This document shows positions 1,070 to 10,905 of a stretch of 64,000 nucleotides of DNA, in pieces. Origin of the DNA: Squalus acanthias (taxonomy: Eukaryota); assembly GCA_030390025.1 (NCBI GenBank), contig CM059439.1, positions 82,460,001-82,524,000 on the forward strand, in the 5' to 3' direction. Each line of letters opens with the position of its first letter. Positions within the stretch are counted from its first letter, which is position 1. The notes beneath the pieces are model-generated. The model had not been told where the DNA came from, did no database searches, and saw only the letters and a list, made by a program, of their open reading frames with translations. Position numbers and translations under genes: made by a program.

Positions 1070-2313
1070 CCCATTTTGTTTTTGCACAATATTTTATTTT
1101 CTTTGTCCCATTGCAACAGTTCTCATCAAAAGTGAGTCGATGGTTTGGGATTAAACCCACACTCTTCACACCTTCAATAAACAAAAACAACAGCGGCAGA
1201 CGCTGGAAATCTGTCAGCAGTTGGAGGGAGGGGAGGGGCAACGTTTCAGCTTCAACATTCCTACAAAACAGCTCCAGGAGACATTCCAATTGGTTAGTTA
1301 GGTACGAATTTGGCAAAACGTTATTCTAATAAAGTTATAAGACGCGTTGAGTTAAAACAGTTAAAGGGATTCATGCAGAAAATGAATGGGTTTAAGAAAG
1401 AAAAGCGTGCTTGGAGCTCGTGCTCTGCATTACTACTGTTCCCTTTGTCCAGTTTGGCAGCGTCATTTCCCAAGGGTCACTTGCTTTTTCCAGGAAACCT
1501 TTTTTGTACAACCACAGAAACTGGTCATCTTTCTCTCTGTGTCTCTCACACACACGGCAGCTTCTTACTATGTACAGTAAACTAGTTTGTTAAAACAACA
1601 AAAAAAGTTTTTTGAAACATTTCCTCAAATGGTCATGTTGATGAACATTTTTCAACTTGATAAAAGTTTGATTTAAAAACAAAATAATTTCTAAGATGTT
1701 GTGGTTTATAGCTTGTTTTTGTTCATGTCAGATTTTTCAGCCACATAAAACCTCACTTGTAAAATATCTTTGGCTGGGCACTCATTTAACACAGGATGTA
1801 TTACCCTGAAAGTAACCAACCCGCAATACAACAATCCAAGTCCCAGTCTCTTTAGATACTCCTACCATTTACACAGACTACCTCCATTCTATGTGCTTCT
1901 CAGTTAGATATATACACCCTCTAGCCAGAGAATTTAAACTCTAAATTACACAACACTTGAAAATTCCACTTCTTGTAAAATAATTGTTCCATTCTCTACT
2001 CTTTCTTACAACATCTTCGAGAGCAGGAATTCTAACAGAAATAATTAAAAAAGTCACTTTAAATTCTACAAGTAATTATTTACCCCATTACAATCTTACA
2101 GTTAATTTCTGTACAGGTTTCATACAGTTCTCCACAGCGGAGTAAGACTTTTGCAGAGTGCACAATGATGATATTAGGCATTGTCCCATGAATAATATCT
2201 CATGATCCGAAGCATGAAAAAACAGTCCTAGCAGCACCTGTGAACAACTCCTCAAGAGTGAATTCAGAAAGCTCAGTCCATGTGCGTCTGGTCAGAAACA
2301 TCTGGATTCCCTC
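1070..2313 (-). other. RASAL2: Probable RASAL2 3'UTR (5' boundary on + strand approximate)
   Basis: AT-rich, largely repeat-free sequence between the stop codon and a polyadenylation signal. Confidence 0.6.
1093..1098 (-). terminator. Candidate polyadenylation signal AATAAA
   Basis: Minus strand AATAAA followed by CA-A-rich sequence and a U/GU-rich element (tttttttcttttgagtatctgtgcctttgtg). Confidence 0.55.
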
Positions 2314-2478
2314 TCAACAGCTGCTGTTCTTGAACTCCCCGTTCTCCGTTATTGACAGCTTGGTGGGGTTGGTGGGAGAGATCCCGTTCCGAGTTTGCAT
2401 GCTGTAACGTTCCTTGACCTGCGTTAGAGCATTCATCAGCCGAGAGTTGGCAGAGTCCAGGGAGACGATTCGTTTCTC
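2314..2478 (-). CDS. RASAL2: RASAL2 last coding exon (EKRIVSLDSANSRL...SITENGEFKNSSC*)
   Basis: Translated by hand. Acceptor tctcag|GAG; TGA at 2316-2314; 165 nt. Confidence 0.96.
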   Translation of the reverse strand, partial: EKRIVSLDSANSRLMNALTQVKERYSMQTRNGISPTNPTKLSITENGEFKNSSC

Positions 2479-3756
2479 CTGAGAGAAAAGCAAAGCAAGT
2501 CAGGTAAGGGGGGGCTGGGGAATGGGGATGAATTTCTCTGACAACAGTGTGCATGGATGGTTTTTAATAGTACAAAAATAAAACAAATAGCCAAACCATT
2601 GTTTGAGATTACCAGCAGGGCGAGGACACAACACACTGAGAAAGGAGGAGGGAAGCGGCCAAAGCTGGAGTCTAACAAAGGCCTGAAAAAATCCTCTGGT
2701 CCAACTCCATCCCAACTGCGGACTGTTGCAATGGATCAGGTTTATTTTTTTGCACTGGTCAAGTTTCATTCTTACAAGCAGAAGCACAGCAGACTCCAGT
2801 ATAAACACTCTAAATGTACGTGGCTCCCTTACCAACAGAAAGCCCACATCGAACACTCCTCCTTCATAATGTGCTGTTTTTGAATAACTCCCAAAGACAG
2901 CAAATGTAAGGACTGTTTTCTTACACTCCGCGTTAATGTGGCTGCATTAACACTGCATTTTATTTGCACAGCAGCATAATGGAAAACTATACTTTCACTA
3001 TTGGGAGACGTTGGATTGGTTTGGTAGAGGTTACAGCTTTACAAGCACACTACTGACGGGGGGAGGCAGGGGAAGAGGTGATGCAAATTTAGAAGACAGG
3101 ACACTTAATTGGGGGCGAGGAGAATGAAGCAACAGTTATCAATGACCAAAGGAGATCCGTTTTCTCATGAGTGGAAAGGACCCCTCTGGGTATAATGAAG
3201 TGCTATTGGTTCAGTATTCCCTTTGTACTATGTGTTCAGCTTTCTTTTATTAGACTAGAAAAGAACAGCTGTTCATAGTTGGATCAGACCAGACTACCTT
3301 CCAAGCACATCATATACGATGAGCATCTCAACACCTTTGGGGAAAAAAAGTGCAGCTTTTCAAAGGCTATTAAGTTCATTAAAAAAAACCTAAAATTCCT
3401 TATAAAAGTTGTGCATTTGGCAGAAAGTGAAATTGTATTTATAAACTTGAATAATCTTTATTCATCCCCATGGCTATTATTCAAACAGTCAATGTTGGCA
3501 AGCTATTTGACTGCAGGGGACATCACAGCCAACTATTTCCAGCAGGTGTCACTGGATCACCAGTGGGAGCAGGAACTCTGGCTGATTTTACCATCCCCAA
3601 AGTAAGGGTGCTGAGGAGAACATGGTGCTTTTACTGTCACCCTGGCTGACATCAGCTGACTCAACACAAACTTGGAGTTGAACCTAGGGGCTTCCCGAGT
3701 GAAAAGCCTTTGAAAGATTAGAAACAAAACAGCGGGGGGGGGGGGGGGGGATCATC

Positions 3757-3860
3757 ACAGTCTCTGTTAAGGTGCGCACGCATGCGCAAAACTTTGAATG
3801 GGCTGCGCATTGGGGGAGGCAGGCAGCGCAGGAGGCAGTGCAGCTTATGGGGGACATAGG
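3757..3860 (+). mobile_element. Degenerate copy of the small hAT-like MITE seen at 34616-34768
   Basis: Shares ttgaatgggc(t/c)gcgca core and a decayed gggaca end. Confidence 0.4.
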
Positions 3861-4039
3861 CCATCATACATTAGCGCACCACCAATTTCATCCAGAGGAA
3901 ACTAAATGCAGGTGAAAGTTAATTCAACTGCAAACAATTGGAATCTTGAATGCTCTGCTAAACCCATAGAGAGTTTGAATTTTTTCCATTAGATTAGTGG
4001 GACTCCCTGATTAGTGTTGTGGGCAAATGATGGGGAACT

Positions 4040-4310
4040 GAGATATATAGGCCAGGAGGGTCCTGGGTTTGATGCTCTGTGCTGAGTTACCTGATCTCAC
4101 CCATGGCCCCCATTCCTCATGGCTATCCAGGGACTCTACTGGAAAGAGCATGTGTGCATATCAGTTGAGGATAGAATTAGGCTTGGCTGTCCTGTCCTCC
4201 CAAGATTGAACTGCACGCTGCCAGTCACTGAGCTCCTGTATGGCAAATGGCCACTTACTGGAGGTATTGCCAGCACCCAGGGAACATCACTGTAGCACGA
4301 GCCATTGCTT
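4040..4310 (+). repeat. Old SINE-like interspersed repeat (unclassified family, many copies in window)
   Basis: Shares gctgagtt..ctgatctca, ctggaaag..tgtgtg and ggcttggctgt blocks with 48020-48330 and 60500-60790. Confidence 0.6.
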
Positions 4311-4880
4311 TCTGACGACAGAGAAAGACAAAGAGAAAACTGACAGGAGAAGAGAAAGGAAAACTGTGATGTGTTTCTTTAGAAATTTGCTGTGGGTATA
4401 GCAGACCCCCGAAGATCTGCCTTTTCAGTTATAGAGCTGTACAGAGTGATGCAATGCTTGGTGCTCGTGATCCAACCAGCTACTCATGCAGTGTTGCTTC
4501 ATTTTGCACCTTTGAAATTTCACTGTTCTGTTCATTATGTTCTTTTTTAAAATAAGTAATGTTGATAGATGCAGTGGGGGGAAAAAAATCACGCAGTCAG
4601 AACGTGCAACAACAAGCCCGCACAATGCTAGCTGGAGAGAGGGGGAGGGACCAGTGGGTTTTTCTCATCTCTATGAACTGCTTTGCTAGGAAACGGAATC
4701 TTACTTGCCTGTTATGCTCATCCCATCCTCACAATTGACCTGTAACCAATACAGTGAACATGTCACGGGCAATATTCGGCAACCTTAGCTGCTTTCTGAA
4801 GAGACAGTGTTTCTTTTGTGATAAATACACAATTGAGGGAATAAAGCACATCTTCATCCATTATTACACAAATGGCTACC

Positions 4881-6404
4881 AAAGAGGTGGCTATAGAGAT
4901 AGTGGATGCATTGGTTGTCATCTTCCAAAATTCCATAGTTTCTAGAACGGTTCCCGCGGATTGGAAGGTAGCAAATGTAACCCCACTATTTAAGAAAGGA
5001 GGGAGATAGAAAACAGGGAACTACAGACCAGTTAGCCTGACATCAATGCTAGAATCTATTATTAAGGACGTGGTAACAGAGCACTTAGAAAATAATAATA
5101 GGATTGGGCAGAGTCAACACGGATTTATGAAAGGGAAATCATGTTTGACGAATCTGTTCAGGTTTTTTGAGGTTGTAACGAGCAGAATAGATAAGGGGGA
5201 ACCAGTGGATGTGGTGTATTTGGATTTTCAGAAGGCATTCAATAAGGTGCCACACAAGAGGTTATTAAACAAAATTAGGGCTCATGGGACTGGGGGTAAT
5301 ATACTAGCATGGACTGAGGATTGGTTAACGGACAGAAAACAGAGAGTAGGAATAAACAGGTAATTTTCGGGTTGACAGGCTGTAACTAGTGGGGTAGCGC
5401 AAGGATCAGTGCTCGGGCCTCAGCTATTCACAATCTATATCAATGATTTAGATGAGGGGACCAAATGTAATATATCCATGTTTGCTGATGATACAAAGCT
5501 GGGTGGGAATGTAAGTTGTGAGGAGGATGCAAAGAGGCTTCAAGGAGATATAGACATGCTAAGTGAGTGGGCAAAAACATGGCAAATGGAATATAATGCA
5601 GAGAAATGTGAAGTTATCCACTTTGGTAGGAAAAATAGAAAAGCAGAGTATTTTTTAAATGGAGAGAGATTGGGAAATGTTGGTGTTCAGAGGGACCTGG
5701 GTGTCCTTGTACATGAATCACAAAGTTAACATGCAGGTACAGCAAGCAATTAGGAAAGCAAATGGTATGTTGGCCTTTATTACAAGGATTTGAGTATAAG
5801 AGTAAAGACGTCTTACTGCAATTATATAGGGCCCTGGTGAGACCACACCTGGAGTATTGTGTACAGTTTTGGTCTCCTTACCTAAGGAAGGATATACTTG
5901 CCACAGAGGGAGTGCAACGAAGGTTCACCAGACTGATTCCTGGGATGAGGGGATTGTCCTATGAGGAGAGATTGAGTAGACTAGGCCTATATTCTCTAGA
6001 GTTTAGAAGAATGAGAGGTGATCTCATTGAAACGTACAAAATTCTTAACAGGGCTTGACAGGGTAGTTGCAGGGAGGATGTTTCTCCTGGCTGGGCAGTC
6101 TAGAACCAGGGGTCACAGTATCAGAATAAGGGGTCGGCCATTTAGGACTGAGATGAGGAGAAATTTCTTCACTCAGAGGGTGGTGAATCTTGGGAATTCT
6201 CTACCCGAGGGCTGTGGAGGCTCAGTTATTGAGTATATTCAAGACAGAGATCAATAGGTTTTTGGATATTAAGTGAATCAAGGGATATGGGGATAGTGCA
6301 GGAAAGTGGAGTTGAGGTAGAAGATCAGCCATGATCTTATTGAATGGCGGAGCAGGTTCGAGGGGCCAAATGGCCTACTCCTGCTCCTATTTCTTATGTT
6401 CTTA
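4881..6404 (+). mobile_element. 5'-truncated CR1 LINE (RT, C-terminus, 3'UTR), disrupted
   Basis: ORFs with QHGF, YLDFQKAF, FADDTKL, RPHLEYCVQFW; tail tcttatgttctta. Confidence 0.95.
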
Positions 6405-7644
6405 AACAAAAAATGATGGTGGCCAACGGTAGCTATCATACATTCCAAAAATTAAACCAGAATGGATGTGGAAGTATTTCAACATTGGCTAAGTGAACAC
6501 CCAGCCAGAGCTCCTGGAGTTTAAATCTTAGGCTCACCTAAAGAGCCATGCCAGTTCTCAGCTGGCCCACTTAGGAAAGAAAAGAGATGGGGGAGAGATT
6601 GAGAGAAAGGAAATTAGAGGGAGGAGAAGAGAACAAGAGAGAAATCGAAGAGAAAATGGAAAGAGAAATCAGAGGGAGCAGGAAATGGGGTGGGATCAAA
6701 ATGAGAGAGAGAGAAGAGAGCAAGTGAGATAATCCAGAGGAAAGAGTATATAGAAAATCAGTGGTAGCAGGAGGGAGTTTTAAAAAGGGGGAGAAGAAAA
6801 CAGCACTAAGAAAGAAGCTTGTAGACCCGATTATTCAAGGATGACTACCCACTGACCAGGATTGTGGAAATTTCCACAGCCCAGACCAGCTTTCCCAGTA
6901 AAGGAAATGTTTGGCAATGACTAAAATTTTCTCCCCCTCCTCACCTGCCATGCCCCATCTTTGTATTCAGCTGCTCATTGATATTTTAGTAGACAGGTCA
7001 GACATTTCAGGCTTTGGTTCCTTCTAAGATTGTTTGACTCTCAAATACCTCTATTTAGTTAATCTGCACCTTGAATCATCTGAACTGCTAATAAAATGAT
7101 CATAGAAAGGAACACCCAGTCTAACTTGTTGATATGTTCCCTAATTGTCTATTTTTTCTGCAGTCCAGTTGAGGTTCTGTGCTCCTGGGCTGCAGTAGTC
7201 TGGTGTTCTTGTCACAACAATGAGGATGAAAGTAGTTGTTAAAAAAAAATTAACAGTCAACAAATATGAAAATGAAGACCAAGTTTCTCAAATGCCAACT
7301 AAAAATCAAGATGAATAGACAAGCCTAAAACTAAAACACTGGCTAGTCATCCAAGAAGTGAGACATTTATGAAACACAAAATTTCAACAATAAAAAGGCA
7401 ATAGTACAATTAAGAAAGCAAAAATCATTTTTTAAATTTTCTCAAAGACAAACTAAAACATAGGCTCAAAAGCCTGCACTAAAACTAGGACTAAACTTCT
7501 TCCACAGACTGCAATTAATATTTGAGAGAGACCAGACTGGCTGTGCGTTAGTTTACTTTCTTCCCTCATCTCCTCCAGACGGATTGCATCATTTCCTTAT
7601 TCAGTGATTTGGCTGAGAACTGCTGTCGCAGCTTCAGAGAGAGC

Positions 7645-7962
7645 TTATTATGGATTCAGTGCAGTCCTTCAAAAGGCAGCTGGACGAGTTCCTCAAAAAC
7701 AAGGACATCTCTGGATGTAGGAGGTAGACGGGTGGAAGGGTAGCTGTAATGATTGATACCAGCTGCTGCAGACGTGTGGAGCTTCCTTGATTGCCTCTCT
7801 GGGTCGGAGAGGAATCTGAGTTCTTTCCTAAATTAGCCTATGGTATTTTCGTCTCTCCTTGGAGATTGTATGACGGGGGTGGGGGGTGTTGACTGCACCA
7901 TATCTGGATGAAATAGCTGAATGGACCACTTGGTCTTCTCCTGTCCTTCTCTGTATGTTCAT
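7645..7962 (+). mobile_element. Old CR1-like 3' end fragment
   Basis: ttcaaaaggcagctggac... and gctgaatgg...tctcctgtcc...tatgttc resemble CR1 3' ends. Confidence 0.45.
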
Positions 7963-8280
7963 TCAAACATTTAAGTGCTTAAATCTTTCATGTTGCTTCC
8001 TTTTTAATGCAAGCTCCTTACTTTCATTTTGCACTGATTTATTTGATGTGGTGGAAGACCTCTCTTGCACTTCAAGAGCTGACCAGTAGATGGCATTTGT
8101 TCCTTTTTATAGTCTATGAAAGTTTTTTTTAAACCACAGCTCAATGCATCGTGTGGTTAAATTTCGAAATTTAAACAATGCATGTTCAGCATGTTCAATT
8201 TAATAATCTGAGCCTACTGGAATTGTACTGTTTCTTAATAAAACTGTGTGTCAGATGCAAATTTAGTTATTACATCTCGG

Positions 8281-9108
8281 TAAATATTGGGAAGACCAAA
8301 GCCACTGTTTTCGGTCCCCGCCACAAACTCCATTCCCTAGCCGACTCCATCCTTCTCCCTGGCAAATGTCTGAGGCTGAACCGGACTGTTCGTAACCTTA
8401 GTGTCGTATTTGACCCCGAGAGGAGCTACCGGCCACATATCCGTGCCAAAACTAAGACCGCCTACTTCCACCTCCGTAACATCGCCTGACTCCACCCCTG
8501 CCTCAGCTCATCTGCTGCTGAAACCCTCATCCATTCCTTTGTTACCTCTAGACTTGACTATTCCAGCGCACTCCTGGCCAGCCTCCCATCTTCCACCCTC
8601 CATAAACTTAAGCTCATCCAAAGCTCTGCAGCCCGTGTTCTAACACGCACCAAGTCCCATTCACCCATCACCCCTGTGCTCGCTGACCTACATTGGCTCC
8701 CAGTTGAGCAACGCCTCGATTTTAAAATTCTCATCCTAGTTTTCAAATCCCTGCCTAGCTTAGTCCCTCCCCATCTCTGTAACCTCCTCCAGCCCTACAA
8801 CCCCCAGCAATATCTGCGCTCCTCCAATTCTGGTCTCCTGCGCATCCCCGATTTTAATCGCTTCACCACTGGTGGCTGTGCCTTCAGCTGCCGAGGACCT
8901 AAGCTCTGGAATTCGCTCCCTAAACCTCTCTACCCTCCTTTAAGACACTCCTTAAAACCCACCTCTTTGACCAACTTTTTTGTCATCTGCTCCAATATCT
9001 CCTTTTGTGGCTCCTGTCAAATTTTGTTTGCTAACGCTCCTGTGAAGTGCCGTGGGACGTTTCACTATGTTAAAGACGCTATATAAATGCAAGTTGTTGT
9101 TGTTGTTG
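8281..9108 (+). mobile_element. 5'-truncated L2-clade LINE
   Basis: ORFs with VRNLSVVFD, AYFHLRNIA, SRLDYS, LHWLPVEQRLDFKIL; tail gctatataaatgcaa(gtt)n. Confidence 0.92.
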
Positions 9109-9239
9109 TGTTTAATGCTCATTTATCCTTAAGGTTGCTTTTCCACTCCAGCATAAATTCGGGATATTTACCCCGTCCAAATCCAATTTTCTCCCCTCTT
9201 TTTCTGACTCAATGGTCCCTCCAGAACCTCAAACAACAG

Positions 9240-9545
9240 GCCGTTCTACTCAGCAGGCTATTCATTTGTGGGAGGCACCAGAACTAAGCGAGGCTGATTC
9301 TGTTCCCATCTGCAACTGACGCACATCCTTCCCAGTGGAAGTCACCAAGAATGATTAGGAGTGGGAACCCTGGCTGACTTTTCCCCTCCCAACCATTGGG
9401 GCCACCGTGGCCAACTACAGCGTGCCCACCATCACCCTGGCTCTGACCGGCTAACTCAGTACTACCAGGGATCAAAACTGGGCACCTTCCTGGGTCCATA
9501 TGACCAAGCCACGACAACAGGCAACCCACCAAGCTAGCAGGGGAG
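9240..9545 (-). repeat. Old SINE-like repeat (same family as 4040-4310)
   Basis: Reverse-complement blocks of the family (gctaactcag..ccagggatcaaa, ctggctgacttttccc). Confidence 0.55.
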
Positions 9546-9994
9546 CAGAGATTTGGAGTTTAGTTTCTTGTTGCAGTCGGTGATTCTGCTGACTTCACAG
9601 CAGCAGCCCCGACAGCTTCAGAGCTTGCGTCATGTTATCATGGGTTTCATAATGGTCCTCAGTAAATCATTTCTCCTTGTTGTTAACCTTTTTGACTCCT
9701 AGGATGCTCTCTGCACTACACACTACCACCTTCCAGAAACTAGCCTTTTTATTCAGTAATCATTTGTTTTCAAGAACAATTGTTTTAACTTTCCTTTGGA
9801 TTCCCCCCTACCCGCCACAACTGATATTTACATTTTGATAAGTACATTTTGTTGAAAATCTACCCGGAAGGGACTCCCTCGAACCAGAATTTACAAAATC
9901 TTTGTTTCTAATTTGATAATCCAACCAAAAATGAAATGAGAAAGTTGACATCTTCACAATCAAATCAGGAAGCTGAGCACTGACGCACACTCAC

Positions 9995-10082
9995 CTGGGC
10001 TTCAATAATCTTCTGTTTGGCATCAATCACTGCCTGCATTTCTGAGTGGTCTTTCTTCAGTTCTTCTTCCACTGCCATCAGT
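9995..10082 (-). CDS. RASAL2: RASAL2 coding exon, coiled coil ([29 protein letters not shown])
   Basis: Translated by hand. Acceptor tttgcag|A, donor CAG|gtgagt; 88 nt, phase 2 to 0. Confidence 0.95.
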
Positions 10083-10905
10083 CTGCAAACCAGAGAAGAG
10101 GAGTAAAGTGTCAGGACACAAATCCGAGAAGGCAGCTGCACATCACAGGAAGTGACAGCTACTTACAGCAGGGTATGTTTCACCAGTGGCGACGACAGTA
10201 TCTCTTTCAGTCCAAACCAGAGCTGATTTATTATTTGCCCCCAGGGTCCTTCAGAAACCTCGGTAATCCAGGTCCAGTGACTGAACACTGTCCACGTGAT
10301 CCCGACAAAGCTGCTCTGACCTGGCTATTGGAGGTGACCCCAGGGTCAGCTGTTGCTCCAATTCTTCCTCTCCTGTACAGTTACGGCTCTTGGCCTCCAC
10401 ACCCAGCATAGCGAAGATCAGTAACTCAGTTTCAACAGATAATGGAAGTGGTGCCCCCTACATGCTGGTGGGCGAAAATGCCAACTCCCGCCTCCAATTA
10501 CATTTGGGTTTGGCACCAGGCCCACCGAGGAGTCGCTGCTATGCTGGTCCTGATTCAGTCACAAGGCAGTCTAAAAGCACCAAATGGAAACTAGAATTGT
10601 CTCCCTCCCTGCAATAGGTGTCTGACATGCTCCTCACCCTTATAATTGCTGCATTCTTCTATTTATTTCTTACCATCATAAAAGTACAGAATTCTGGTGG
10701 CCAGTTTTCAATTTTTAGGGTTATGCTGTCTATTACACCTTTTTCTCACTGAAAGCAGAAACCCAATAGTCCCTGTACTAAAGCAAAATGTTTTGACTAC
10801 CTACCTATCAATCAGCCCTGACACATGGTGGTAAACCAGCAATACTAAGAAGTTAACCGGTCAGATTGGTGTATGTCACGATCAGCAGTCAGATCTGACA
10901 ACAGT

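Follow-up and report, generated by a model that had tools for sequence, protein, structure and literature searches.

The closest described system to the locus analysed here is the SynGAP-gamma isoform which, according to the available text of two reports, is the product of a short exon with its own stop (exon 19 in human, e20 in mouse) and ends in LLIR* (PMC7314543, PMC9064290). The available text of a preprint describes triple coding in RASAL2, with two of the frames conserved throughout jawed vertebrates, and dual coding in each of the three paralogues (10.64898/2026.05.28.727796). Family-wide dual coding was found in this one preprint, and no paper that we found joins a RASAL2 microexon to the SynGAP-gamma layout. 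A second point of comparison is offered by exons with distant branch points; the accessible part of the relevant study notes that long AG-free zones are often repeat-derived and unconserved (Gooding et al., PMC1431707). The accessible parts of PMC13102718 and 10.1101/2024.10.10.617460 have no bearing on the candidate exon discussed below.

A candidate stop exon in the last intron of RASAL2

The window is a stretch of 64,000 nt of the Squalus acanthias genome (contig CM059439.1, positions 82,460,001 to 82,524,000), and all coordinates are those of the window. The first-pass annotation had taken the gene on its minus strand to be RASAL2 (nGAP), an assignment borne out by the large exon 18955-18080, which is 95-96% identical to shark nGAP-named proteins. 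By analogy with SynGAP-gamma, it had further proposed a stop exon in the last intron, and the premise of that analogy, namely that the corresponding intron of SYNGAP1 contains a short stop exon, agrees with the text available to us (PMC7314543). The last intron runs on the minus strand from 9994 to 2479 (about 7.5 kb), between the penultimate constitutive coding exon (10082-9995), which ends ..IIEAQ in phase 0 at 9995, and the last exon, whose coding part (2478-2314) encodes EKRIV..NSSC* and has three reading frames, set by a microexon.

The candidate is a 24-nt piece at 6561-6538 that opens with a CAG acceptor and encodes LRTGMAL*; an AAG acceptor gives a 32-nt version at 6569-6538 that encodes WAS*. 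It is followed by the donor GTGAGC at 6537-6532 (context TAG/GTGAGC), a consensus match whose strength was judged by consensus only. Upstream lies a CT-rich, low-complexity tract at 6805-6572, 234 nt long, 84% C+T (with 26 A and 12 G) and free of AG. On neither strand of the window is there a longer AG-free run; the runner-up, at 20995-20768, is 228 nt long. TCTT (PTBP-type) motifs are numerous in the tract, and branch-point-like CTRAY motifs occur only at 200, 111 and 56 nt, the nearest being 56 nt above the CAG acceptor. Tandem Repeats Finder flagged just 36 nt of the tract (6635-6670), and a clean microsatellite was rejected on that basis. Inverted repeats near the candidate (71-76%) were taken as chance. 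A DNA search with 6420-6620 matched its own locus alone and revealed no dispersed repeat at that sensitivity. The first-pass description of the tract, both acceptors, the donor, the phase and the two peptides thus proved accurate in every element, position included. The candidate occupies a last-intron position after a phase-0 coiled-coil exon, with short in-frame coding, a stop and usable splice sites. The 50-nt rule of nonsense-mediated decay (NMD) lets a stop near the last junction escape, and the predicted escape would hold for a stop at the end of the candidate.

The AG-free tract and the donor compared with chance

We analysed whether the tract and donor are more than chance. When the letters of the tract were shuffled 20,000 times, 24% of the shuffles contained no AG (P=0.24). 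In the same test, 0.6% of the shuffles of the 228-nt tract before a real acceptor were AG-free. The absence of AG from 6805-6572 is thus not beyond chance, because base composition accounts for it. The comparison set was 399.5 kb of sequence, read on both strands, from 40 places elsewhere in the genome, of which 33 were arbitrary and 7 lay beside the three paralogues. They contain nine AG-free runs of at least 234 nt, five of them in one low-complexity stretch, and four windows of 234 nt with at least 80% pyrimidine, or about one per 100 kb. Not one of the 29 background AG-free runs of at least 150 nt has a GTRAG closer than 60 nt, and by expectation 0.9% of 40-nt stretches contain AGGTRAG, so the pairing of tract and donor is less common than the tract itself. 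The last intron of RASAL2 holds three AGGTRAG motifs (6946, 6539 and 5883).

The candidate was compared with two large contig sets from related organisms, F and G, which were taken as DNA because of their size and span 6420-6900; X9 and X13 cover this interval partly or not at all, and the comparison rests on F and G. The donor GT is AC in F and is kept in G. The tract is present in both, with indels in each; the AG that bounds it upstream is absent from both, and F has gained an AG inside it, at 6680. No substitution was seen in 6538-6582 in either relative. The exon and its acceptors (6538-6571) differ at 0 of 34 sites, whereas the flanks differ at 18 of 157 (Fisher P=0.047, a post hoc test; P=0.10 when the mean rate is used), and the tract also differs less than the flanks (11 of 234 sites, P=0.017). 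Two close relatives cannot settle whether the candidate is under constraint.

The tract resembles those of distant-branch-point exons in its AG-free zone of at least 150 nt and in the pyrimidines before the acceptor, as far as these exons are described in the accessible text (PMC1431707). Unlike them, its zone is explained by composition, an AG was gained in F, and the exon behind it is no more than a candidate; neither an AG depletion beyond composition (P=0.24) nor conservation of that depletion in relatives (AG at 6680 in F) was found. The 228-nt tract at 20995-20768 (minus strand) shows AG depletion beyond composition (P=0.006) and lies before a coding exon that has two acceptors, 20765 and 20744, separated by 21 nt; judged by these sequence features, it is the better distant-branch-point candidate. 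The seven residues between these acceptors, GENSFLQ, are present in 198, absent from 72 and unmatched in 86 of the 356 RASAL2-search proteins listed below.

The donor could also be read in another way, with TAG/GTGAG at 6538/6537 as a recursive (zero-length) splice site for removal of the intron in two steps. The YAG/GTRAG motif downstream of a long pyrimidine tract fits this reading; however, three other AGs lie between the tract and the site, the GT is lost in F, and the intron is just 7.5 kb long. Vertebrate recursive sites are mostly found in very long introns, and we regard recursive splicing here as extremely improbable.

RNA and protein evidence at the candidate

Four of nine near-identical runs (X1, X3, X6 and X7) were aligned, as contigs, to 2100-10300. 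None of the runs identified is recorded as RNA, but all four contain RNA, since a spliced GT-AG joint is present in each: the joint 9995-2478, which skips the intron and gives the usual EKRIV..NSSC* end. The first-pass annotation had pointed to joints from 9995 to 6561 or 6569 and from 6538 to 2478 as a check. No joint to 6561, 6569 or 6538 was found among the listed joints, mostly repeats, of the four runs, contigs being a form in which rare products are dropped. A single unspliced contig runs across the candidate in X1 (depth 3.5), and another does so in X6 (depth 2.9). These contigs explain the whole of the candidate bin, leaving less than 0.6 (X1) and less than 0.06 (X6) for inclusion, that is, no spare depth, and both acceptors are crossed unbroken at intronic depth. 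Since contigs drop rare forms and four of the nine runs were covered, these data limit inclusion of the candidate and leave room for rare use, which in any form we consider unlikely.

The C-termini of 356 vertebrate RASAL2-search proteins were then compared, comprising the best 120 of 361 matches and the listed members of 20 clusters (15 per large cluster). In this set 200 proteins have the usual tail and 127 an alternative one, VNxEDGMSxTG or VINGxxxQTG; eight have other tails, two stop at the anchor and 19 are without the anchor pattern. Not one of the 356 listed proteins, 104 of them chondrichthyan, ends in LRTG, GMAL or WAS.

These results bear directly on the proposal of a genuine but rarely included cassette stop exon of 24 or 32 nt, giving a gamma-type tail and escaping NMD. 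Its splice signals and phase are good, a donor near such a tract is uncommon in the background (0 of 29), the exon and acceptors are invariant in F and G, and the donor is kept in G. However, the donor is AC in F, the tail is absent from the 356 listed proteins, and there is neither a listed junction nor spare depth in X1 and X6, even though X6 is a likely includer of the 31-nt exon described below. Moreover, the piece occurs once in the genome, and scans of the DAB2IP and SYNGAP1 introns yielded nothing equivalent. We therefore think it most doubtful that the piece at 6561/6569-6538 is the cassette exon it was proposed to be. The check on conservation gave a divided answer, the exon and acceptors being unchanged in F and G while the donor is AC in F and the tail is missing from the vertebrate proteins.

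A 31/35-nt microexon at 4739-4709

The alternative tail has a source elsewhere in the same intron. A 31-nt microexon at 4739-4709 (minus strand), with a TTACAG acceptor and a GC donor at 4708 (GCAAGT), encodes VNCEDGMSIT plus G. It encodes the same peptide as the tails VINGDEIIQTG.. and VNxEDGMSxTG.. of annotated RASAL2/nGAP proteins, RefSeq-type models of 16 chondrichthyan species among them, and corresponds in position to the tetrapod RASAL2 exon. The exon is already annotated, and from the available text of the preprint we infer that it is the RASAL2 exon described there (10.64898/2026.05.28.727796). Tails from the 31/35-nt exon occur in 56 of the 104 chondrichthyan proteins (16 species), and the 127 carriers among the 356 include chimaera, sharks, rays, coelacanth, amphibians, turtles, birds and mammals; teleosts were not among the matches examined. 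The alternative tail is missing from every listed model of Narcine (9 of 9), Mobula, Hypanus and Pristiophorus (P0007, P0013 and some of P0169-P0196), which may reflect loss, or annotation without neural RNA.

The end of the microexon holds two overlapping donors and a stop, GCAA/GTAA at 4708-4701, with the main, non-canonical GC donor, a GT donor 4 nt further on (4704) and TAA at 4703-4701. Splicing from the GC donor puts the last exon in its third frame, with a tail of 78 residues. With the GT donor the exon is 35 nt long and leads into the alpha1-equivalent frame, which reads RNESSPWTLPTLG, with the same start and length as SynGAP-alpha1 RGSFPPWVQQTRV; this 13-residue frame ends in TLG, which is not a PDZ ligand. 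The rarer 35-nt form is annotated in two other sharks (P0122, P0002), so that it was picked up by the annotation in which no tail from the candidate appears among the listed proteins. Reading through both donors gives TGK*, a tail annotated in 5 of the 356 proteins, from three frogs and a bird (P0083, P0276, P0289, P0305, P0309).

RNA from X6 is consistent with use of the 31-nt form. In the bin of 4739-4709, intron contigs leave 2682 of 3918 depth units unaccounted for; an intron contig stops at 4737, the very position predicted for a junction from the GC donor; and the depth is 78.7 at the skip joint as compared with 160.5 in the last exon. The contig of the last exon begins with CAG, in keeping with the end of the 31-nt exon and not with the TTAG of the candidate, although this break alone could come from unspliced RNA. 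From these contig breaks and depths, the exon is likely to be included in X6. In X1, X3 and X7 there was no sign of a depth excess, a contig break or a half-depth skip joint. The alignment was thus able to expose an alternative exon of this intron, and in X6 it pointed to 4739 and not to 6561.

A TGCATG lies downstream of the microexon, at +219, and UGC motifs lie upstream; together with the general finding of the preprint, these motifs are suggestive of neural-specific inclusion. Between the tract and the microexon lies a high-copy retroelement block of 1.5 kb with reverse-transcriptase ORFs (4894-6404, plus strand), which we take to be CR1-like. The microexon is about 1.8 kb from the candidate, and with the retroelement removed it is 322 nt from the tract. 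A second pseudo-exon-like piece is present at 4311-4259 (minus strand; 53 or 49 nt), with a pyrimidine-rich acceptor and the donor CCA/GTAAGT; no protein tail matching it was seen.

Comparison with the paralogues

The genome holds three members of the family: RASAL2, a DAB2IP-like and a SYNGAP1-like gene. The last intron of the DAB2IP-like gene (2.9 kb) has no long AG-free tract, and no matching microexon was found in it. In its last exon (L004) the second frame closes after exactly 13 codons and the third is open for 56, as in RASAL2. When the last introns of the DAB2IP-like gene (2.9 kb) and the SYNGAP1-like gene (22 kb) were scanned, with a pyrimidine cut-off that also missed the real RASAL2 exon, neither showed an equivalent of the candidate or an LLIR exon, and nothing in them clearly matched the 31-nt exon. 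Among 38 chondrichthyan proteins of the SynGAP set, none has an LLIR-type tail.

The last intron of the SYNGAP1-like gene contains a 183-nt AG-free tract, 73% pyrimidine, whose AAG acceptor opens an alternative exon. This exon (L006 from 4476; G000:C26:27624775 on; plus strand) encodes 66 residues and ends GGGGQQLV*, a possible PDZ ligand. The QQLV* exon is annotated in four other chondrichthyans, and it may take the place of alpha1, since in this gene the last exon, when read in the alpha1-equivalent frame, ends in PTPG.

This exon gives some substance to another reading of the RASAL2 candidate, in which the piece would open an alternative last exon (WAS* or LRTGMAL*) polyadenylated within the intron, its donor being dispensable. 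Such an exon would account for the invariance of 6538-6571 despite the loss of the donor in F; the shark SYNGAP1 paralogue has this very layout, an AAG acceptor behind a 183-nt AG-free tract; and a peptide-supported cryptic last exon of Rasal2 has been reported, in a text that, as far as available, does not state the intron (10.64898/2026.01.30.702498). However, in X1 and X6 continuous contigs of intronic depth run across the two acceptors; the closest AATAAA lies within the retroelement, at 5781, and the next at 3462; a protein ending in WAS* or LRTGMAL* is absent from the 356 listed; and by eye the piece has no likeness to the SYNGAP1 exon. This reading stays alive because long AG-free tracts mark real acceptors twice in the gene family (in RASAL2 and SYNGAP1), but its probability is, in our view, very low.

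The annotated microexon bears a closer resemblance to the SynGAP-gamma exon. Both are short exons of the last intron that follow a phase-0 junction after ..DAQ or ..EAQ, as the available text on SYNGAP1 indicates (PMC7314543, PMC9064290). In both, reading on past the donor yields a single basic residue followed by a stop (TGK* from the 35-nt form of RASAL2, LLIR* in SynGAP-gamma), and splicing on leads to the alpha1-type frame (..KRNESSPW.. in P0122; ..IRRGSFPPW.. in P0559 and P0570). They differ in that the exon peptides have no sequence likeness and that the main product of RASAL2 is the long third-frame tail. The candidate, by contrast, has its stop internally and a length divisible by three, and lacks this layout. 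Judged from protein tails, the 35-nt and gamma exons appear to share one layout, and homology between them would seem as easy to accept as to doubt.

Discussion

Taken together, absence of the tail from the listed proteins, absence of a listed junction and loss of the donor in one relative disfavour the candidate. We consider it likely that the piece is a pseudo-exon, a chance donor beside a CT-rich tract, and that the switch of the RASAL2 tail works through the 31/35-nt exon at 4739-4709. In the mechanism that we propose, skipping of both exons (9995 to 2478), as seen in all four runs, gives the usual EKRIV..NSSC* end; inclusion of 4739-4709 through the GC donor would add 31 nt and place the last exon in its third frame; use of the GT donor, adding 35 nt, would open the 13-residue frame in the alpha1 position; and use of neither donor would lead to the read-through stop and a gamma-like TGK*. 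The CT-rich tract could possibly, though not probably, serve as a PTBP-type silencer of the microexon, or might be a mere decaying repeat.

A broader proposal would give the last intron of shark RASAL2 two stop exits, the 35-nt exon being the paralogue of the SynGAP-gamma exon and the candidate an acceptor-only counterpart of the SYNGAP1 exon, with a tail switch that predates the split of the three genes. We find this proposal unlikely as a whole.

The first-pass suggestion of a gamma-type end for RASAL2 is plausible in itself, TGK* being an annotated tail, but such an end belongs to the exon at 4739 and not to 6561/6569-6538. The candidate would have added a gamma-type isoform of RASAL2, and this exon probably does not exist. 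It is the annotated 31/35-nt exon that gives RASAL2 alpha2-like, alpha1-frame, gamma-like and third-frame tails; a stop forms part of its second donor, as inferred for SynGAP-gamma. If the homology with the gamma exon holds, for which the case is about evenly balanced, RASAL2 would provide a comparison for the poorly understood gamma isoform.
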